A stretch of 64,000 nucleotides of DNA from a bacterium (GCA_037200965.1 JBBCGK010000001.1:800001-864000), one strand, 5' to 3'. Counted from the stretch's first letter, positions 1,243 to 61,036 are shown. Notes: generated from the sequence alone by a model not told the origin. Program-made: numbers and translations.

Positions 1243-1398
1243 ATTTGAACTCTAAGCCTCCAGCCTTCAATATGAATGACGGAAAGCTTCAAACGGTTTT
1301 AAAAGGCGGTGCATCAAGGCAGGACTGAAAAGTCTCTAAAAGAAAACTTTAACGTGCACAACCTCCTCGAAAGAGGACGGAAAAGTAAGGGCAAGGCA

Positions 1399-3291
1399 AT
1401 GAAAATGGATATGAACAAACAAAGCTCAAACAATAAAAAAGTACACCTCACCTCCGCCAATCTCTCCGAGGAGAAGCTGTTTGAGCTACGCCGCATCCTT
1501 CCCGAAGCGTTCAGCGAAAACAAGATTGACTGGGAGAAGCTCCGCACCGTTCTTGGTGACGCAGTAGACGCCCATATCGAGAAGTTCGGCTTTACCTGGG
1601 CAGGAAAAAGCAACGCTATCAAGAATGTTTTGATACCAAGCAAAGCCACACTCAACCCCGCTCCCGACGAGAGCGTGAAGTTCGATGAAAGCGAGAATCT
1701 CTTTATCGAAGGCGACAACCTCGAAGTCTTGAAGCTCTTGCAAAAAGCGTACTTCGAGAAGGTGAAGATGATTTATATAGACCCGCCATACAACACGGGC
1801 GGCGACTTCGTGTATAAGGACAACTTTGCCGCACCGCTCGACAACTATCTCAAGCAGACCGGCCAGAAGAACGGCAACGGCGAGCATCTCACAACCAACA
1901 AGGAGACCAACGGCCGCTTCCACAGCGACTGGCTTTCAATGATGTACCCACGCCTCAAGCTCGCGTGGAATCTTTTGCGTGATGATGGAGTGATATTTGT
2001 TTCGATTGACGATAACGAAGTGCATCATTTGCGAATACTAATGAATGAGATTTTTGGTGAGGAAAACTTCATCACTAATTTTGTTTGGCACTCTAGTACA
2101 GGTGGTGGTATCAGAAGCAAGTTTGCAAACCAGTCTCATCAATACGTTCTATGCTATGCAAAGAGTGTAGAAGACGTTGAGATGTTCTATGCGCCTCTTT
2201 CTGAAGATGCGAAGAAGCAATATAAGAAAGAGGATGAAAAAGGAGTCTATCGGGAGAAGGATTTTGCTTGGAAAAACTCATCGTGGGGAGCAAATCAAAA
2301 ATACTTCATCGAGTGTCCTGATGGTGAAAAAGCGAGACCAAAGGACGGGTATCTTTACCGCTTCATCGAACCAACTTTCAAGGAGAGTCTGGCAAATAAT
2401 ATGGTTGTCTTCAAAGAAGCAAGAAATAGTCCACTGGTAAATGAAAAAGGCGAGCAATCAAAATGGAACATCTATATCAAAAAGTATTTAGGTGATGGGA
2501 CAGGTGCTCCTTCATCAGTCATTCCGCGAGATTTAGTAGGAATCAATAATGAAGGCACTACAGAACTCAATGAACTGTTTGGTTCGAGTTTGTTTGAAAG
2601 CCCGAAGAATGTCCGGCTTTTGACATACCTACTCTCGTTAGCAGATAGCGATGATGGCGACATAATCCTCGATTTCTTTGCTGGCTCTGGTAGCACCTCT
2701 CACGCAGTGATGGCTCTGAACCAAAAGGATGGAATCAATAGAAAGTGGATTGTGGTTCAACTTCCAGAAAAGACTGACACGGATAGTGCCGCGTACAAAG
2801 CTGGATACAAAACCATTGCTGAACTTTCTGTAGAACGCATACGTCGCGCCGCGAAAAAGCTGGATGTCCAAGACGGCTTCAAGGTATTTAGACTGGCAGC
2901 ATCAAACTACCCAGAGAATACTTTTGAGTTCGACCCAGACAAGGCCGAGGAAGAGAACAAGGCGGCCTTCGAGGATTATTTGAAGCAAGCAAAGCGCGCC
3001 AAGCTTATTGACGACCTAGACGAGACGAGCGTCATCTACGAAAACATCGTCAAGGAAGGATTCTCGCTCAACTCCAAGATTCAGGAAGGCGTGCCAGGAA
3101 ACAACAAGGTCTACACCATCACCGACGGCGACCGGCAGTTTTCTATCTGCCTCGACCGTTCGATTGATGACACGACCGTAAAGAACATCACGGAGTGGGC
3201 TAAAGGAGCGACCTTTATCTGCTTCGATAATGCGCTCTCTGACAGCCAGAAAGCAAACCTCGGCCTCCACGTGGAGCTGAAAACGATATAA
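1399..3291 (+). CDS. mod: Type III restriction-modification methyltransferase (Mod, N6-adenine beta-class)
   Basis: DPPY motif (IYIDPPYNTGGDF) precedes the FxGxG SAM motif (LDFFAGSGSTSHAV). About 630 aa, directly upstream of res. ATG at 1399 has an AAGG RBS; the ORF is open from 1309. Confidence 0.85.
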   Translation: MKMDMNKQSSNNKKVHLTSANLSEEKLFELRRILPEAFSENKIDWEKLRTVLGDAVDAHIEKFGFTWAGKSNAIKNVLIPSKATLNPAPDESVKFDESENLFIEGDNLEVLKLLQKAYFEKVKMIYIDPPYNTGGDFVYKDNFAAPLDNYLKQTGQKNGNGEHLTTNKETNGRFHSDWLSMMYPRLKLAWNLLRDDGVIFVSIDDNEVHHLRILMNEIFGEENFITNFVWHSSTGGGIRSKFANQSHQYVLCYAKSVEDVEMFYAPLSEDAKKQYKKEDEKGVYREKDFAWKNSSWGANQKYFIECPDGEKARPKDGYLYRFIEPTFKESLANNMVVFKEARNSPLVNEKGEQSKWNIYIKKYLGDGTGAPSSVIPRDLVGINNEGTTELNELFGSSLFESPKNVRLLTYLLSLADSDDGDIILDFFAGSGSTSHAVMALNQKDGINRKWIVVQLPEKTDTDSAAYKAGYKTIAELSVERIRRAAKKLDVQDGFKVFRLAASNYPENTFEFDPDKAEEENKAAFEDYLKQAKRAKLIDDLDETSVIYENIVKEGFSLNSKIQEGVPGNNKVYTITDGDRQFSICLDRSIDDTTVKNITEWAKGATFICFDNALSDSQKANLGLHVELKTI

Positions 3292-3293
3292 CT

Positions 3294-5924
3294 ATGAAGT
3301 TCAAGTTTGACGCAAACCAAGATTTTCAAATAAACGCAGTCAACGCCATCGTTGGCGTCTTTGAAGGTCAGCCGAAGCGTCAAAGTGTGGTAGTAAATGT
3401 GCCCGCACTTTCCGTTTCCGGCTCATTGCCGCTCCAAACTACATACGGCATCTATCCGAACGAGCTGACGCTTTCCGACGAGGAGGTGTTTGCCAACGTC
3501 TGGAAGATTCAAGAGCAAAACAAAATCGGCAATGGCGGCACGGTTGAGGAGTACGACTTTTCTATCGAGATGGAGACGGGTACGGGTAAGACGTATGTGT
3601 ACCTTCGTACCGTCTTTGAACTCAACAAGCAATACGGATGGAAGAAGTTTATCGTTCTCGTGCCGTCCGTCGCCATCCGCGAGGGCGTCATCAAGACGCT
3701 CCAAATCACCAAAGACCACTTCGCCGAGCTGTACGACAACGTGCCGTACCGCTTCTACGAGTACCAGTCCAAGAACATCTCGCAGGTGAAGCGCTTTGCG
3801 GAATCCAGCAACCTGGAGATTATGGTGATGACGGTAGGTGCGTTCAACAAGGACGCGAACGTGCTCTATGCCGCCCGCGACCAGATGCAGGGCGAGCAGC
3901 CTATCAGCTACATCCAGCGCAGCAACCCCGTCCTCATCCTCGACGAGCCGCAGAATATGGAAGGTGAAGCGACGAAGGAGGCGCTCAAGAACTTCAACGC
4001 GCTTGCACGCCTGCGATACTCCGCGACGCATCGCAATCCGTACAACCTCATGTACCAGCTCACGCCGTTCGATGCGTATCAGCTCGGCCTCGTAAAGAAG
4101 ATTGAGGTGTATTCCGTTACGGATGACGACACCGGCATCTCGCGCCCGTCGCTCAACCTCATCTCCGTTGAATCCGGCAAGGCGCTCAAGGCAAAGTTAG
4201 AGGCCATCGTGAAAGATGCCGACGGCGCATTGAAGCGCAAGAAGCTCACCGTCAAACAGAACGACGACCTCGCGCAGAAGACCGGCAACGACGTATACGC
4301 CGGCTATATCGTGGACGAGCTTGACGCCGATGCGCCAGACCTCGGGCAGATTGGTAGGATTCGCTTTCGCAACAACGTGGAGATTCGCCAGGGTGAAGGC
4401 GTAGCAAACAACAACGAGCAAGTGATGCGCGAGCAGATTGAGCAGACCATCCGCCGCCACTTCGAGAAACGCAACCAGCTCCGCGATATGGGCATCAAGG
4501 TGCTCTCCCTCTTTTTCATAGACAAGGTAGACAACTACGTTCAATCAGACGGGTTTATCCGCTCTGCGTTCATAGCCGAGTTCAATCGCCTCAAGAAAGA
4601 CTATGGCGCTGACGGCATGGACGTGGATACCGTCCACAAGGGATATTTCGCCAAGCGCGGCGAGGAGTATTTGGAGCGAGAGTCCAGCATCGCCGAGAAC
4701 CAGGAAGCATACGAGCTGATTATGAAGGACAAGGAGCGCCTGCTTTCCTTCGATGAGCCGACGGAGTTCATCTTCTCGCACTCCGCACTCAAGGAAGGAT
4801 GGGACAACCCAAACATTTTCAATATCTGCACCCTGCGCGAGACCGTTTCAGTCATCCGCAAGCGCCAGGAGATTGGCCGAGGTATGCGCCTCTGCGTCAA
4901 TCAGGACGGAGAGCGTATTTTCTTGCGCAGCGTCAACCTGCTCTCCGTGATTGCAAACGAGAGCTATACGGAATACGTCTCATCGCTCCAGGGCGAATAC
5001 GAGGAGGACGGTATCTACAAGTCTGCGCCGTTGCCGAACAATGCCAAGCGAAAGACCACGGTGAAGCTCAAGAAAGATTTTGATAAGGACACGGACTTTG
5101 CTGGTATCTGGGAACGCATCTCGAAGAAGACCCGCTATGTCGTGCAGGTTGATAGCGAGCGCGTCATCGAAGCGTCCGCAAAGCAGATTGCGAAGCTCCA
5201 TCTCGCAAAGCCCAAGATGCGCGTCGAGCGCGCGGGCGTGAACATCGCGGCCGAAGGCATCACCGCAAACATCGTAGGCACCCGTGCCGAGGATTTGAGC
5301 CAGACCAAACGCACCATTGACCCTATCGAACTCATCAAAAACGAGACCAAGCTGACGCGCCACACGGTCGCGGAGATTTTGGCGAAAGCGGACAATACCG
5401 ACTCCTTCCTCAAGAATCCCGAACGCTTCTGCTTCGAGGCAACGCGCATCATCAAGGCCGAGCTGGTGAAGGATTACGTTTCCCAGATTCGCTATGAGGT
5501 ACTGCCGGAGCAGTATGACCTCAAGCAGTTCGAGGACATCCCGAGCTACAAGGACGCGACGCACAAGGTGAACAACTCCATCTACGACGCCATCGTGTAT
5601 GACTCCGACGTGGAGAAGAACTTTGCCGTCGCCCTCGATGCCGACGAGCGCGTGAAGCTCTTTATCAAGATGCCCAACTGGTTCAAGGTGAACACGCCTA
5701 TCGGCGGCTACAACCCCGACTGGGCAATCGTTACGGCCAAGCGAGACCTCCAGGGCAATGAGGAGAAGGAGCGCGTGTATTTCGTGATTGAGACGAAGGG
5801 CGACATCTCCAACATGCGCGAGAGCGAAGGACAAAAGATTGCTTCCGCCAAAAAGCACTTTGAAGTCATCGAGGTGAACTACAAGGAGGTCGAGAATTAT
5901 GGACAGTTTGCTGAACAACTATGA
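3294..5924 (+). CDS. res: Type III restriction endonuclease Res subunit (SF2 helicase plus C-terminal PD-(D/E)xK nuclease)
   Basis: Walker A METGTGKTYV, DExx-like ILDEPQN, C-terminal VIETKGD nuclease motif. 876 aa, 3 nt after mod. Confidence 0.85.
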   Translation: MKFKFDANQDFQINAVNAIVGVFEGQPKRQSVVVNVPALSVSGSLPLQTTYGIYPNELTLSDEEVFANVWKIQEQNKIGNGGTVEEYDFSIEMETGTGKTYVYLRTVFELNKQYGWKKFIVLVPSVAIREGVIKTLQITKDHFAELYDNVPYRFYEYQSKNISQVKRFAESSNLEIMVMTVGAFNKDANVLYAARDQMQGEQPISYIQRSNPVLILDEPQNMEGEATKEALKNFNALARLRYSATHRNPYNLMYQLTPFDAYQLGLVKKIEVYSVTDDDTGISRPSLNLISVESGKALKAKLEAIVKDADGALKRKKLTVKQNDDLAQKTGNDVYAGYIVDELDADAPDLGQIGRIRFRNNVEIRQGEGVANNNEQVMREQIEQTIRRHFEKRNQLRDMGIKVLSLFFIDKVDNYVQSDGFIRSAFIAEFNRLKKDYGADGMDVDTVHKGYFAKRGEEYLERESSIAENQEAYELIMKDKERLLSFDEPTEFIFSHSALKEGWDNPNIFNICTLRETVSVIRKRQEIGRGMRLCVNQDGERIFLRSVNLLSVIANESYTEYVSSLQGEYEEDGIYKSAPLPNNAKRKTTVKLKKDFDKDTDFAGIWERISKKTRYVVQVDSERVIEASAKQIAKLHLAKPKMRVERAGVNIAAEGITANIVGTRAEDLSQTKRTIDPIELIKNETKLTRHTVAEILAKADNTDSFLKNPERFCFEATRIIKAELVKDYVSQIRYEVLPEQYDLKQFEDIPSYKDATHKVNNSIYDAIVYDSDVEKNFAVALDADERVKLFIKMPNWFKVNTPIGGYNPDWAIVTAKRDLQGNEEKERVYFVIETKGDISNMRESEGQKIASAKKHFEVIEVNYKEVENYGQFAEQL

Positions 5925-10170: not shown

Positions 10171-11304
10171 TTGCCATCCTGCACAAGTTCAGATACATAT
10201 GGCACTCCTCCTAACTGAGGAGCGATGCGTCAATTCAACATACTGAAGGATACCGAGGGCTGGTTGTATATGCGCGAGCGGAGCATACGCTTCCTGCATA
10301 TGAGGAACAACGACGAGGTGCGGCATCGGGTCAAGGTGCTGGACTTCTGGAAAACGCACGGGGAGCGTGCGGCCAGGGACGCCTTCAGCGTCTCTCGCCG
10401 CACGCTCTTCCGTTGGCAGGCGAAGCTCGACCGCGCGCACGGGAGACTCGACGCGCTCGATCCCAAGTCGACGGCACCGAAGAATCGGAGGAGACGCATC
10501 GTCCTCCCCGAGGTCGAGACGTTCATCCTGAAGGAGCGCGCGGAGCATCCGAGGCTCGGCAAGGCGAAGCTCGCAGCCCTGCTGCGGGAGGACGGGTACC
10601 GGGTATCCGAATCGTATGTCGGGAGGGTCGTCGCGGACCTCAAGAGGAGAGGGCTGCTGCTCCCGCACAAGCCGCTCTCATACTATGCGCGAAGCGGCAC
10701 GTATCGGGAGAAGCCCGTATCGAAGCGCACGAAGCTGCGCAGGCGGCACAAGCGGGGCATGGAGCTCGACACCGTCGTCCGCTTCATCGACGGCGTGAAG
10801 CGGTACGTCCTGACCGCCATCGATGTCGAGAAGAAGTTCGCCTTCGCCGGCGCGTATACCGTCCACTCCTCCGCGTCCGCCGCCGATTTCCTCGCGCGCG
10901 TCATCGCGGTGTGCCCCTTCGACATCACGGAGCTCCAGACCGACAACGGCCCGGAGTTCGCCAAGAACTTCGAGGCGGGGTGCCGCGCCCTCGGCCTCAC
11001 CCACTTCAATACGTTTCCCCGCAGCCCGAAGATGAACGCGTTCGTCGAGCGGTTCAACCGGACGATCTCGGAGGACTGCATCATGCTCAATCGGCCGCTC
11101 CTGCGGGACGACGTCGCGGCATTCAACCTGAAGCTGGTCGACTGGCTGCTCTGGTACAACGCCCGGCGTCCGCACGAGTCCCTGGGACAGGTGCCGCCGC
11201 TCCGGTATATACTCTCCTCATTAACGGCCGAGGAGTGCCAGAGGTACTGGACGCGTACACATCCTTGACAGAATTTAGACCAGGCTGCATTGTGGCGTCG
11301 GCAA
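10171..11304 (+). mobile_element. IS481-family insertion sequence (boundaries tentative)
   Basis: Single rve/DDE transposase ORF. Imperfect inverted repeats TTGCCATCCTGCACAAG (10171-10187) and reverse complement of CTGCATTGTGGCGTCGGCAA (11285-11304) share TTGCC...CACAA cores. Followed by a sharp GC shift. Confidence 0.35.
10225..11268 (+). CDS. IS481-family DDE transposase (N-terminal HTH plus integrase-core rve domain)
   Basis: TAIDVEKK..., LQTDNGPEF, HFNTFPRSPKMNAFVERFNRTI motifs typical of the IS481/IS3 integrase core; 347 aa. Confidence 0.8.
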   Translation: MRQFNILKDTEGWLYMRERSIRFLHMRNNDEVRHRVKVLDFWKTHGERAARDAFSVSRRTLFRWQAKLDRAHGRLDALDPKSTAPKNRRRRIVLPEVETFILKERAEHPRLGKAKLAALLREDGYRVSESYVGRVVADLKRRGLLLPHKPLSYYARSGTYREKPVSKRTKLRRRHKRGMELDTVVRFIDGVKRYVLTAIDVEKKFAFAGAYTVHSSASAADFLARVIAVCPFDITELQTDNGPEFAKNFEAGCRALGLTHFNTFPRSPKMNAFVERFNRTISEDCIMLNRPLLRDDVAAFNLKLVDWLLWYNARRPHESLGQVPPLRYILSSLTAEECQRYWTRTHP

Positions 11305-18181: not shown

Positions 18182-18271
18182 TCAGGCGATCTCACGCTAT
18201 CAGCACCGGAAAACAAAAACAGTGCAGGTCCGGGCTGGACCTGCACTGCTCTGCACTTGCGCGGAGGATGT

Positions 18272-28385: not shown

Positions 28386-28386
28386 A

Positions 28387-28421
28387 TAGCAAAAATACCG
28401 ACATCAAGTCGGTATTTTTGC
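28387..28421 (+). terminator. Perfect 15-bp stem-loop, likely bidirectional terminator/attenuator
   Basis: AGCAAAAATACCGAC-atcaa-GTCGGTATTTTTGCT followed by ATTT. Confidence 0.45.
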
Positions 28422-28492
28422 TATTTAGTCCGCCTCCGGATCGACTTTCATCGTGCTGAAGAGTTTCATGTCGCGGTATTTGTTCGTCTCCC

Positions 28493-38763: not shown

Positions 38764-38782
38764 GTTCTTAGTGTTCTTTAAA

Positions 38783-38823
38783 GCGGAAACCCCGCGCGGC
38801 CCCTGGCCGCGCGGGGTTTCCGC
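38783..38823 (+). terminator. Perfect 19-bp GC-rich hairpin (3-nt loop), likely factor-independent terminator
   Basis: GCGGAAACCCCGCGCGGCC-cct-GGCCGCGCGGGGTTTCCGC immediately after the stop at 38763. Confidence 0.45.
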
Positions 38824-38855
38824 TGCGCATAAAGGCCATAGAGTAGAATGGCGGG

Positions 38856-45270: not shown

Positions 45271-45303
45271 TCCACCGTTTTCATTTCTTGCTACAATACC
45301 CGT

Positions 45304-49096: not shown

Positions 49097-49819
49097 ATGC
49101 TTCGGGCCATGGCTGCCCGCAAACGTCCCGGTACCATAAGCTTTCTCCTCGCGGTTCTTGCGGCGGGCGTTACGCTCACCGGCGTCTATTTCGCCCTCGC
49201 TCCGGCTATCGTCCCGAACCCGGATCTTCGCGCGACCGTGATACCGACGGGCGTGCTCGCAAGAACCAACAGCGACCGCGCCGCAAACGGCCTTCCGGCG
49301 CTCCGGGGAAACTATCTGCTTGATAAAGCGGCGCAGATGAAGGCCGACGACATGGCGGAGCGCGGCTATTTCGCGCACATAAGCCCCGACGGGCAGAGCC
49401 CGCTCTACTGGCTCGACAAGGTCGGATACCAATACCTGAACGTGGGCGAGAACCTGGGGCGTAACTATCCGGACGCGCGGGCGCTTGAAACCGGCTGGAT
49501 GAATTCTCCGGAGCACCGGGAGAACGTGCTCCGGCCCGAATTCACCGAAGCGGGCGTCGGGACCGCAAGCGGCATGTACAAAGGGGAAATGACGACATTC
49601 GCCGTCGAGATATTCGCGACGCCGCTTCCTTCCGCCAAGGGAAACTCTTCGGGTAGCGGTACTGAAGTTGTTCCCATTCCCGACCTTATTTCGTCCAAGC
49701 CGCTCGCCTCGACAAGCGACGAAGACGCGCTCTACCGTGCGACGCTCGGCGCGCTCATCCTCGATCTCAAGCGCCAGATAGCGGAATTGGTCGCGCGCCT
49801 TGCGCTTAAGCCGGGCTAG
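49097..49819 (+). CDS. CAP/SCP-domain secreted protein (YkwD-like)
   Basis: Signal/TM; RANSDRAANGLPALRGNYLLDKAAQMKADDMAERGYFAH...NPDARALETGWMNSPEHRENVL. Confidence 0.65.
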   Translation: MLRAMAARKRPGTISFLLAVLAAGVTLTGVYFALAPAIVPNPDLRATVIPTGVLARTNSDRAANGLPALRGNYLLDKAAQMKADDMAERGYFAHISPDGQSPLYWLDKVGYQYLNVGENLGRNYPDARALETGWMNSPEHRENVLRPEFTEAGVGTASGMYKGEMTTFAVEIFATPLPSAKGNSSGSGTEVVPIPDLISSKPLASTSDEDALYRATLGALILDLKRQIAELVARLALKPG

Positions 49820-49838: not shown

Positions 49839-50099
49839 ATGAATCCCGACGTAGCCGAGGAAGGTATCGAGCACTTGGAGCGGATCGAAACGGAACTCGA
49901 GGAAATAAGGAAGCGCACGGGCGGCACGACCCGCGCGTTCGTAAACGGATTGTTTCAGGGCGGCGGGGCGATCATCGGCGGCGTTCTCGCGATACTCCTC
50001 ATCGGCGCTATCCTCGCGTTTCTCGGGCTCATTCCGGGTCTGGGGGATGTCGCCGCATACATCCATTCCGCGGTCGAAGAGCTGCGTTACGCGCGATGA
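49839..50099 (+). CDS. Small membrane protein
   Basis: 86 aa, Gly-rich TM segment. Confidence 0.35.
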   Translation: MNPDVAEEGIEHLERIETELEEIRKRTGGTTRAFVNGLFQGGGAIIGGVLAILLIGAILAFLGLIPGLGDVAAYIHSAVEELRYAR

Positions 50100-50371
50100 C
50101 GGCAGGGAAGCGAATCGTTCGCGCTTCGCGCCATCACGTCTATATCCTCGAGTGCGCCGACGGGACGCTCTACACAGGAAGCACGAGCGACCTTGTCCGA
50201 AGGCTTCGGGAGCATAATCACGCCAAATCAGGGGCGCATTATACGAAGATCAGGAGGCCTGTCGTGCTCCGTTATGCCGAATCCGCAAAGACGCTCGGGG
50301 AGGCAAGAAGCCGGGAAGCCGCTCTTAAGCGCCTTACGAGGCAGGAGAAGCTCGCGCTTATCGGGAAATAA
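50096..50371 (+). CDS. GIY-YIG nuclease family small protein (UPF0213-like)
   Basis: HVYILECADGTLYTGSTSDLVRRLREHN, a textbook GIY-YIG core. Confidence 0.75.
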   Translation: MTAGKRIVRASRHHVYILECADGTLYTGSTSDLVRRLREHNHAKSGAHYTKIRRPVVLRYAESAKTLGEARSREAALKRLTRQEKLALIGK

Positions 50372-50383
50372 GTCCGGGTACAT

Positions 50384-51219
50384 TCAAGAAGTAATTGCAC
50401 CACCTCCGAAGAGTGCTAATGGTGTCTTGTACCCGAACCGCTTTCTCGGCCGCTCGTTCAGAGCCAGCTCAATCTCCCGTATCCGTGCCTCCGATACTGT
50501 TGCGAAGTCCGTGCCTTTGGGCAGGTACCATCGTATCAAGCCATTGACGTTCTCATTCGCCCCACGCTCCGATGATGTGTATGGGTGAGCGAAATACACC
50601 TGTACGCTTCTGCCGTCTTGCGGGGTATCTTCTCAATCGCCACGTACCCGCTCTTGCGCTCAAGCAGGGTGACCAAGGCAACCGATGATGCACGCGAGAC
50701 GATGAGGTCGCCCTCCCAGTCGCCAAGACGACTTCGGCGATCCACTGCCTTCGGACGTGCCTCGATCGAGCGTTTGTGTGGGTTCGGGAGACGCTGATGC
50801 TTCCTGAAGCCCTTCCGGTGCCTCGTTTTGTGGCGGCGTTTGAGAAGCGAGCGCAGGTCCTCGCCACCATTCTTCCATTCATCGTATACAAACTGGTATA
50901 TCGTCTCGTGCGACACGCCGCCCACGGTGCCAGCGACTTGTTCGGGCGACCACCCACGCCTCAAGCCAGCGGCAATCTTTTCTCGAAGACCGGCAGTTCG
51001 TATGCGCCCCTGTGTCTCGTGTCGTTTCGACTGTGCTCTCGCCTCCGCAAGCCGGGGCGTATATCGCCGCACTAACGCGGGCATGTTCTTGTTCACCTCG
51101 CGCGACACTGAGGACGGAGACCGTCCAAGGCTCTGGGCGATGGCCCGAATTGACCGCTTCTCCCAGAGTCCTTGCTGTATTTGCTCACGCTCTTCAATAC
51201 CGAAATGCCTGTGTGCCAT
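50384..51219 (-). pseudogene. IS30-family transposase, decayed (frameshift plus internal deletion)
   Basis: N-terminal HTH and DWEGDLI (first catalytic D) in ORF 50536-51219. C-terminal HPY..ERG.NEN.NGL (catalytic E region) in ORF 50384-50599 in another frame. The central DNG.EF segment is missing. Confidence 0.7.
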
Positions 51220-51282
51220 GCCGCTAGATTAGCGGAAGTGTTGCGTTTACTTGTTGAACTCAGGCGGTGCTAAAATTGCGCA

Positions 51283-52092
51283 ATGCGCAATTTCTGCTTT
51301 ACCGACTCCAGCGGGATATTGAGAAGCGATCGTTTCTTCGGAACCGGTCTTTTGGTGGTAAAGAACGTAGGGGACTTGGGCGACAAGCTCTATAAGAACA
51401 GCCAGCCGGCGAAGGCTCTCGCCAAGGAAGGAAAAAACCGACAGATCGAGCAGCTGCTTGCCGCCGGGAACAAAGACGAGGTCATACGGATGCTGCGGGG
51501 CAATTATCGTTTCGAGATGAAATTCGACAATGTCGGGAACCCTGCCCTGGCCCCGTATTACGACGGCATGGTTGACATCTTCTTTTCCGATTCCGACAAC
51601 CGCTTCTCCGCGATGGTCGTTGACCGCCAGAACCCCCGTTTTGACCACGGCGGCATGGAAGACTCGTGGGAAACCTATACGAAATACATCGCCATGCTGG
51701 TGGTGCGGGAAATGAGTCACATGCCGGACGACGAAATCTGCCTCGTTGTCGACGAGATAACCAAGCCCCGCACGAAGGCCTTGTCTTTGGAGGATGCTAT
51801 TTTGAGCAAAATTAGGGAAGAGACCGCGACCGTCGAGGGCCTCGATTTCGACAAGGTATTCGGTGCGCTTACCATCGAGTCGCATTCGAATCTCCCCATG
51901 CAGCTGTGCGATGTTCTTATGGGAGCCGTCATGTACGAGTACAAGAAGAAAAACGGTTTGAACAGTGTTCGGACAGAGGCGAGGAAAGAGCCGCTCGTGC
52001 GAAAAATACGCGCCGCGCTCGGCGAGCCGACCTTGGCGAAGGAATTCACCGCCAACTCAACGGCATACTTCAACGTTTTCGAGTGCGTATAG
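51283..52092 (+). CDS. DUF3800-like hypothetical protein
   Basis: N-terminal FCFTDSSG resembles the DUF3800 DESG motif; 269 aa. Confidence 0.35.
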   Translation: MRNFCFTDSSGILRSDRFFGTGLLVVKNVGDLGDKLYKNSQPAKALAKEGKNRQIEQLLAAGNKDEVIRMLRGNYRFEMKFDNVGNPALAPYYDGMVDIFFSDSDNRFSAMVVDRQNPRFDHGGMEDSWETYTKYIAMLVVREMSHMPDDEICLVVDEITKPRTKALSLEDAILSKIREETATVEGLDFDKVFGALTIESHSNLPMQLCDVLMGAVMYEYKKKNGLNSVRTEARKEPLVRKIRAALGEPTLAKEFTANSTAYFNVFECV

Positions 52093-52307
52093 GAAAAAAG
52101 GAAAACGGCCCGCACGAGGCGGACCGCTTCCCTTCATGGGTCATCGACAAGAAACCGACACCCACTACTTTTGCCAGTCTATACCAGGCCGCGTGACGGG
52201 TCAATGAATATGAAGATTATACGGCCTACCTAAGCCATGCACTTTTCCCCTGCATGCATCGGTTTCCGAACGAAAAAGCAAAAAATACGGGTTGCTTGAC
52301 ATGACTG

Positions 52308-52357
52308 CCACATGGGAGTACGCTTGCCGTAATTACGGCAAGCGTACTCCCATGTGG
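52308..52357 (+). repeat. Perfect 50-bp palindrome (25-bp arms, no spacer)
   Basis: CCACATGGGAGTACGCTTGCCGTAA|TTACGGCAAGCGTACTCCCATGTGG equals its reverse complement. TTGACA lies at 52296-52301 upstream and TATAAT at 52369-52374 downstream. Confidence 0.9.
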
Positions 52358-52428
52358 CTTATATGTGTTATAATACATCTCTGCCGCCCGAGTTCCGAGA
52401 TGCCTTGCCGAGTTGGTATACTGACAGC

Positions 52429-53145
52429 ATGCAAGACCAACCACATTTCGGCATCGTTATCGCGATCTGCGCGGGCATCGCCGCGCTCGCCGTCCTCTTT
52501 TACGTCTGGAATGCGGGACAACCGGAAAACCCTCTCATTCCGCCACTTTCCCCTGAAGCTACGTCGACGGACGGCGTAGCTAGTACCACTTCCGAAGTCC
52601 CCGTGTATGCGCCGGAACCCGCCGCCGACCCGGTGCATGCATACGGAAGCGTGACGATCTCGCTCGGGCAGGTCGCCCGTTTCGCCGACCTCTACATCAG
52701 TCCGCTTTCGATCGAAGAGGACAGCCGCTGTCCCAAAGGGGTACAGTGCATTCAGGCGGGAACGGTACGGGTACAGCTTGAGATCGGAAGCGGACTTGGC
52801 AAGAGCACTCAAGTCACAAAGCTTGGGGATTCCGTTACTACCGAAGCCGAAACTATCACGTTCGTTGCGGCGAATCCCGAGCCTGTCGCGGGCATTACGG
52901 TCGCCCCTGCCGACTACCGCTTTACGTTCACGGTCACGAAGCGCCCGCCTGCCGCCGCGGGCGGCCCGTGCTTTGTCGGCGGTTGCTCGTCGCAGATCTG
53001 CAGCGACGAACCGGGCGCGATCTCCACGTGCGAATACCGCGACGCGTACGCCTGCTATAAGACGGCACGCTGCGAGCGGCAGCCGGGAGGCCAGTGCGGA
53101 TGGACGCAGACGCCGGAACTCGCCGCGTGCCTTGCGTCGTCATAG
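52429..53145 (+). CDS. Cys-rich exported hypothetical protein
   Basis: N-terminal TM/signal, C-terminal CFVGGCSSQICSDE...CEYRDAYACYKTARCERQPGGQCGW. Confidence 0.5.
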   Translation: MQDQPHFGIVIAICAGIAALAVLFYVWNAGQPENPLIPPLSPEATSTDGVASTTSEVPVYAPEPAADPVHAYGSVTISLGQVARFADLYISPLSIEEDSRCPKGVQCIQAGTVRVQLEIGSGLGKSTQVTKLGDSVTTEAETITFVAANPEPVAGITVAPADYRFTFTVTKRPPAAAGGPCFVGGCSSQICSDEPGAISTCEYRDAYACYKTARCERQPGGQCGWTQTPELAACLASS

Positions 53146-60993: not shown

Positions 60994-61036
60994 TACGGGA
61001 AAACTTCCCGGGCACGGCGTGCCCGGGAAGTCAGCG

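Follow-up and report, generated by a model that had tools for sequence, protein, structure and literature searches.

A 52-bp perfect palindrome between a DUF3800-like/small RNA locus and a Cys-rich gene in a Patescibacteria bacterium, tentatively read as a long-stem terminator or insulator hairpin

The palindrome described here comes from an uncultured bacterium of the Patescibacteria (CPR) and lies in the spacer of two genes, within a 64-kb stretch of DNA that was analysed at its full length and is called the window below. The window is part of a metagenome-assembled genome (GCA_037975565.1), on the 960-kb contig JBBCBH010010897.1. The features surrounding it run in the order CAP-domain gene (49097-49819), gene for an 86-aa membrane protein, GIY-YIG gene, remnant of an IS30-family element, DUF3800-like gene with a small RNA (sRNA) gene, palindrome, and Cys-rich gene (Table 1). 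The original prediction had the IS30 and DUF3800-like neighbours right, but it missed the sRNA gene, which is read from the minus strand between the DUF3800-like gene and the palindrome. It had also noted that the palindrome is flanked by a TTGACA and a TATAAT hexamer and that the Cys-rich gene starts about 70 bp downstream; both hexamers were found (52297-52302 and 52369-52374), and the ATG at 52429 is about 70 nt past the palindrome. The TTGACA hexamer, judged by its spacing, is probably a chance match. Elsewhere in the window, the segment from 1309 to 5924 carries a DNA methylase gene (N6_N4_Mtase) and then the gene of a helicase-type restriction enzyme (ResIII and RE_endonuc); from these domains, the two look like a type III-like restriction-modification pair.

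Table 1. Coordinates of the palindrome, its neighbours and the other hairpins discussed in the text (window positions unless a locus is named).
Feature	Position	Strand	Remarks
Palindrome	52307..52358		26-nt arms; identical in the independent assembly L005
T-rich tail TTATATGTGTTA	52359..52370	+	directly 3' of the hairpin; terminator-like in scan
TTGACA hexamer	52297..52302	+	without a usable -10 at 16-18 nt
Extended -10-like TGTTATAAT	52366..52374	+	includes the TATAAT at 52369-52374
Extended -10 TGGTATACT	52414..52422	+	6 nt (gacagc) ahead of ATG 52429
Cys-rich gene WDN10_05005	52429..53145	+	membrane-anchored or exported protein; Heavy_Cys_CGP, PF27854
IS30-family remnant	50377..51264	-	internally deleted; both terminal inverted repeats (TTCAAGAAGTAA...) kept
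Leaderless-type promoter TGCTAAAAT of the DUF3800-like gene	51268-51276	+	TGnTAnnnT geometry
DUF3800-like gene WDN10_05000	51283..52092	+	269 aa; RNase H-like fold family
Predicted sRNA gene	52089-52170	-	~80 nt; convergent with the DUF3800-like gene; conserved
sRNA promoter-like TTGACC-17-TAGACT	52176..52204	-	comparable -35/-10 pairs readable in other loci
Hairpin	38782-38824		20-bp perfect stem; -47.8 kcal/mol; 20 nt past stop codon; no U-tract
Hairpin	28386-28424		17-bp stem; bidirectional terminator-like
Hairpin	61003-61031		14-bp stem; between convergent genes
Hairpin	18220-18248		12-bp stem
Imperfect hairpin	10357-10416		-45.1 kcal/mol; within the 5' part of an rve-family (integrase core) transposase gene
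L006 palindrome	4926-4975 (L006)		24-nt arms and 2-nt spacer
L032 palindrome	4038-4082 (L032)		19-nt arms and 7-nt loop

The palindrome is an inverted repeat without a spacer, its arms (GCCACATGGGAGTACGCTTGCCGTAA on the left, TTACGGCAAGCGTACTCCCATGTGGC on the right) being 100% complementary. An exact 50-bp inverted repeat had been predicted at 52308-52357; the repeat is indeed present, but its true length is 52 bp. All 26 pairs are Watson-Crick pairs with no G-U, the centre is AT-rich (GTAATTAC), and as RNA the sequence would fold into a 24-bp stem closed by an AAUU loop. In a sliding 60-nt scan, whose mean was -14.5 kcal/mol (sd 5.2), no other fold of the window was as stable as this one at -51.2 kcal/mol; its fold z-score was -7.9. 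The arm was found in none of 100 shuffled sequences, and the arithmetic expectation for such a palindrome (about 64000 x 4^-26) is roughly 1e-11, in agreement with the earlier statement that it is unlikely by chance. Because a 4-nt loop is self-complementary one time in 16, the description "perfect palindrome" adds little beyond "perfect long hairpin".

We asked whether the palindrome is real and whether it is a member of a repeat family, since either an assembly artefact or many genomic copies of a REP-like element had been named as grounds for setting the prediction aside. An independent assembly made from a different sample (GCA_015655515.1, contig JAATEX010000169.1, locus L005) is 99.97% identical to the window over 7.8 kb, with 2 mismatches, and carries the identical 52-bp palindrome contiguous with both flanks. 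Short-read graphs do break at the palindrome: the Logan contigs (k=31) built from run SRR28211700 break off at 52336 and resume at 52329, with the final k-mer on each side containing exactly one base of unique flank. This is the behaviour expected of a de Bruijn graph at a true palindrome longer than k, and, together with the presence of the palindrome and its flanks in L005, it leads us to reject an assembly artefact. A branch of a k=141 graph, caused by fold-back or strain heterogeneity, was suspected because L005 stops 140 nt past the first base of the palindrome, and was rejected; the next contig of the same assembly (L049) starts 30 nt further on, so that the end of L005 is probably a coverage gap. 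At its other end (positions 1-240), L005 diverges totally from the window left of 44630, which would mark a strain-level mosaic or a rearrangement breakpoint.

Further copies were sought in the window and in sequence collections. No second copy of the arm was detected in the 64 kb at up to 3 mismatches, and half-sites (15-mers from the arm) did not occur in the window above chance. A 20-mer from the arm was absent from the GTDB species-representative genomes and from IMG/VR, the 341-bp region around the palindrome had no match among PLSDB plasmids and INPHARED phages, and comparison of the region with Rfam 15 returned only sub-threshold, spurious miRNA-hairpin matches. A dispersed REP-like repeat was rejected on these grounds. 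The REP/BIME elements of proteobacteria are likewise extragenic, hairpin-capable palindromes that could stabilise an upstream mRNA; however, REPs are imperfect, about 35 bp long and present in tens to hundreds of copies, whereas the palindrome here is perfect, 52 bp long and single-copy in everything searched. The copy search within the genome took in 64 kb of roughly 1 Mb; even so, given two assemblies from different samples with identical sequence and flanks and the empty searches of the genome, viral, plasmid and phage collections, we consider it extremely improbable that the palindrome is an artefact or one copy of a dispersed repeat.

The promoter of the Cys-rich gene bears directly on what the palindrome could do. 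In the window the motif TGnTAnnnT, followed by 6-7 nt and the start codon, precedes thirteen genes, all of them on the plus strand (the sites at 45289, 49823, 51268, 52414, 54901 and 58117 are among them), which implies widespread leaderless transcription in this CPR genome. The motif at 52414 is, by its geometry, the probable leaderless-type promoter of the Cys-rich gene, and the Cys-rich homologues in the loci L055 and L057 show the same layout of extended -10 and ATG. In contrast to these sites, the extended -10-like sequence at 52366-52374 has no start codon at the usual distance of 6-7 nt. Transcription from a leaderless-type promoter should start at the ATG, which places the palindrome outside the 5' UTR; the proposal of an RNA hairpin in a 5' UTR is thus disfavoured. 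Relative to the predicted start of the Cys-rich gene the palindrome lies at about -71 to -122, and it does not cover the core promoter.

We compared the DUF3800-like gene with its relatives at other loci, 27 unique loci in all, the relatives being 47-73% identical. DUF3800 proteins are regarded as having an RNase H-like fold and are tied to non-coding RNAs, retrons and CRISPR accessory genes (PMC10910872, PMC7736814, PMC13594972). The window protein matches PF12686 at E = 0.02, and 21 of 23 family members match it at a permissive E <= 1, below the Pfam cutoff, the best at 2.8e-07. A 21-nt palindrome (AAATTGCGCAaTGCGCAATTT, 51273-51293) covers the start codon of the DUF3800-like gene and reaches into its -10 region. 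In every locus for which the 3' flank was available, a 30-nt block (GGGTCATAGACAAGAAACCTACACCCACTA) was found 40-60 nt past the stop codon with 0-4 mismatches, and beyond this block the similarity among the loci ends abruptly. The conserved segment can be folded into a 5' hairpin, whose loop is invariant and whose stem covaries, and, 3' of it, an intrinsic terminator that has a U-run. The RNAalifold consensus has 23 pairs, 10 of which show compensatory changes (TAG/CTA became TCG/CGA in the window and TGG/CCA in L024), and G-U pairs are formed on the minus strand only. The covariation, the U-run hairpin on the minus strand and the -35/-10 pairs on the same strand together point to a convergent sRNA of about 80 nt.

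A covariance model of this sRNA scored 77 bits at 52089-52170 and had no second hit in the window; each DUF3800-like locus likewise contained a single copy, antisense to the gene in every case, and no copy away from DUF3800-like loci was detected in 180 kb. Searches against Rfam 15 returned no match at E <= 10 for the window region and none at the gathering score for 20 loci. DUF3800 genes are known to associate with structured RNAs that bear terminators, namely the motifs DUF3800-I to -XI, drum and skipping-rope (Weinberg et al. 2017, PMC5737381). The sRNA resembles these in being structured, in having a 3' intrinsic terminator and in always adjoining a DUF3800-family gene on the opposite strand; it differs in that no Rfam 15 model matches it and in that it was found in Patescibacteria loci. 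By this resemblance, the sRNA probably adds another motif to the DUF3800-associated RNAs reported there.

Comparison with L055 and L057 shows how relatives arrange these genes. In both loci the CAP-domain gene directly precedes the Cys-rich gene (L057 also has a small membrane protein), and a block of ~2.3 kb containing the GIY-YIG gene, the IS30 remnant and the DUF3800-like/sRNA pair is absent between them. From this synteny, the palindrome is placed at the right edge of ~2.3 kb of inserted selfish DNA, as the last feature before the ancestral Cys-rich gene. The same comparison shows the spacer from 50096 to 52300 to be a sink for selfish DNA. The IS30 remnant has its closest intact relatives in L053 (83-90% nucleotide identity) and L054, which have terminal inverted repeats of 22-26 nt starting TTCAAGAAGTAAACGCAACAC; about 100 bp of the catalytic core are missing from the remnant relative to L053, and a 227-aa N-terminal HTH ORF is still open. 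Junctions at which two IS30 inverted repeats meet are known from (IS30)2 and from minicircles, and the palindrome resembles such a junction in having 26-nt arms abutted head to head near an IS30-family element. However, the inverted repeats of this lineage are unrelated to the palindrome arms (the best local alignment spans 7-10 nt), and the remnant is whole at both ends and about 1 kb away, so that an IS30 end or an IR-IR junction was rejected. A MITE or a pair of solo inverted repeats was rejected as well, since no direct repeats flank the palindrome.

We examined whether long palindromes recur at other DUF3800-like loci. In 232 kb of CPR DNA there were 15 perfect hairpins with stems of at least 12 bp, 4 of them with arms of at least 19 nt, and 3 of these 4 were within 220 nt of a DUF3800-associated sRNA gene. 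Two of the 26 other DUF3800-like loci, L006 and L032, have a perfect palindrome of about 45-50 bp in a similar place, and the three palindromes are mutually unrelated in sequence. L006 and L032 have in common a 48-nt coding-like block, 74 and 69 nt past the palindrome, respectively, with a small ORF containing NDLLENIKLLLNYI; because this block lies at a similar distance in both, we take the two palindromes to be positional homologues and to count as roughly one event. The distance from palindrome to sRNA is 50 nt in L006 and 167 nt in L032. The ATG of the small ORF in L006 begins 1 nt past the palindrome. In L032 an IS110-family transposase gene (Transposase_20/DEDD_Tnp_IS110, 4295-5032, minus strand) lies about 210 nt from the palindrome and appears to interrupt the small ORF common to L006. 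The link between long palindromes and DUF3800-like/sRNA loci is suggestive but weak, and the notion that the palindrome is a general, integral part of the DUF3800-like/sRNA module was rejected, since 24 of the 27 loci are without one.

Few natural bacterial sites match the palindrome in size and perfection, and among them are the protelomerase sites telRL of N15, phiKO2 and PY54, which are perfect or near-perfect palindromes of about 42-56 bp. In contrast to these, the palindrome is set among ordinary chromosomal genes. Both on the 960-kb contig and on the independent 8-kb contig it has an internal position, with both flanks present, and the cumulative GC skew climbs monotonically across it with no switch. 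No protelomerase or ResT gene was detected among the 20 window ORFs scanned with Pfam. A telomere-resolution site was rejected for these reasons.

The reading that we favour, with a probability of roughly 0.45, is that the palindrome is a very long-stem, factor-independent terminator or insulator hairpin, acting in RNA or in DNA. The original prediction did not include a terminator in its list of candidate functions, which otherwise named an operator, a recombination site and a 5'-UTR hairpin; a terminator is the best-supported reading here. The palindrome separates the end of one plus-strand gene from the beginning of the next, in a genome with hardly any genes on the minus strand, and lies 214 nt past the stop codon of the DUF3800-like gene and 55 nt ahead of the Cys-rich -10. 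A simple terminator scan flagged it on the plus strand only, with the tail TTATATGT, an interrupted tract with 5 T in the first 8 nt; the minus-strand tail of the hairpin is not T-rich. Plus-strand transcription would exit the DUF3800-like gene and run antisense through the convergent sRNA gene; such read-through is plausible, since the hairpin just past the DUF3800-like stop codon carries a U-run when read from the minus strand and none when read from the plus strand. Read-through would then be halted at the palindrome, where the 24-26-bp stem precedes UUAUAUGUGUU, or its 3' end would be fixed and protected there; the leaderless-type promoter of the Cys-rich gene lies another 55 nt downstream. 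A perfect stem of this length would be a substrate for RNase III too. Observed directly are the existence of the hairpin, its placement between two plus-strand units, the geometry of the promoters and the synteny; we infer that transcription reaches the hairpin and ends there.

Other hairpins of the window and the homologous loci support the terminator reading. The other very stable perfect hairpins of the window (Table 1) are of the same kind, being placed after stop codons and before the next promoter; the hairpin at 38782-38824 ends about 13 nt ahead of the -10 of the next gene. The two next energies in the window, -47.8 and -45.1 kcal/mol, form a continuum with that of the palindrome. Across the 232 kb, hairpins just upstream of leaderless-type promoters numbered 2 of 15 against a background of 2.7%, too few cases to count for or against this reading. 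In L057 the homologous Cys-rich gene has a TGTTATACT promoter with a canonical terminator 13 nt ahead of it, which shows that an arrangement of terminator and then promoter occurs elsewhere at this gene. The palindrome is like intrinsic terminators in being a stable stem-loop past one unit and just upstream of the next promoter, and in that its T-rich tail is on the plus strand, where termination would call for one, and similar hairpins in the window follow stop codons; it differs from them in its 24-26-bp stem (typically 5-14 bp), in its distance from the nearest upstream stop codon, in its interrupted U-tract and in that termination is predicted. The 214-nt distance may be due to insertion of selfish DNA upstream of the hairpin. 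Long "I-shaped" terminator hairpins without clear U-tracts have been described in some high-GC bacteria.

Several observations argue against a terminator. The stem is 2-3 times the length of a typical intrinsic terminator, and the organism uses ordinary terminators, such as that of the sRNA, with stems of 8-12 bp and a U-run. The U-tract of the palindrome is broken. The 24 DUF3800-like/sRNA loci without a palindrome have no comparable downstream hairpin, and the stems in L006 and L032 are AT-rich and have no T-tail. Lastly, the presence of Watson-Crick pairs at all 26 positions, with no G-U, fits a symmetry arising at the DNA level equally well. Whichever function applies, we infer that the simplest source of this perfection is a process acting on the DNA, namely hairpin-templated correction or a recent birth, and the symmetry was presumably kept or made by intrastrand template switching and not by selection on each base.

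The same perfection is the starting point for a neutral explanation, in which the palindrome is a by-product of a recent inverted duplication, or of quasipalindrome correction through intrastrand template switching, in a tolerant spacer. The AT-rich centre, the single-copy status with no sequence relatives in any collection scanned, the gathering of selfish DNA in this spacer and the lack of sequence relationship among the perfect palindromes of the window, L006 and L032 are all consistent with such an origin; however, no structure in the 64 kb is more stable, and the palindrome occupies precisely the position expected of a terminator. Its conservation in two strains argues only weakly for constraint, since these strains differ by no more than 2 mismatches in 7.8 kb. 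We regard a purely neutral origin as unlikely. Symmetry is also what one would expect of a protein-binding site, that is, an operator or activator site for the Cys-rich gene, the divergent sRNA promoter or both, and the palindrome does lie between divergent promoters (sRNA -35 at 52204, Cys-rich -10 at 52414). Yet it overlaps neither core promoter, being at about -139 to -190 with respect to the sRNA in addition to the position given above for the Cys-rich gene, and 52 bp of perfect symmetry is far beyond known operator half-sites and the needs of protein contact. The neighbouring genes (DUF3800-like, IS30 remnant, GIY-YIG and NUDIX) include no regulator gene, the sole nearby HTH is that of the IS30 remnant, and the inverted repeats cognate to it are different, and no half-sites were detected elsewhere in the window. 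No similar site was present upstream of the Cys-rich homologues in L055 and L057, where an operator could have diverged because the closest homologues are only about 50-63% identical. The dimeric-regulator operator put forward originally is accordingly disfavoured, and a protein-binding site of any kind is very unlikely.

Could the palindrome instead be a feature of the mobile or selfish DNA next to it, serving as a target, a junction or a recombination site, including one for cruciform-mediated recombination? Its position at the right edge of the block that is absent in L055 and L057, the proximity of three of the four longest palindromes to a DUF3800-associated sRNA and the IS110-family transposase close to one of them would fit such a role. 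On the other hand, most DUF3800-like loci (24/27) have no such palindrome, the palindromes in L006 and L032 hold their distance to the coding block (74 and 69 nt) and not to the sRNA (50 and 167 nt), no target-site duplication surrounds the palindrome, the IS30 inverted repeats are unrelated to its arms, and the Pfam scan of 20 window ORFs revealed neither a recombinase nor a protelomerase. These results make a mobile-DNA site distinctly unlikely. The observations neither favour nor oppose the cruciform recombination site or hotspot of the original prediction. It is highly improbable that the palindromes are functionally tied to the DUF3800-like/sRNA cassette itself, either as a targeted DNA hairpin or cruciform or as the scar or boundary of a hairpin-forming insertion, which would amount to a new mobile RNA-protein module.

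Under the terminator or insulator reading that we favour, the palindrome probably belongs to a known kind, of which it would be an unusually long example. If it does act in this way, it would be an extreme case of the separation of transcription units in a CPR genome with leaderless transcription, and its value would lie mainly in annotation. More noteworthy than the palindrome itself is the sRNA beside it, which is unannotated, tightly conserved and paired with a DUF3800-family gene, and which extends an unexplained association of RNA and protein that was first noted in 2017.
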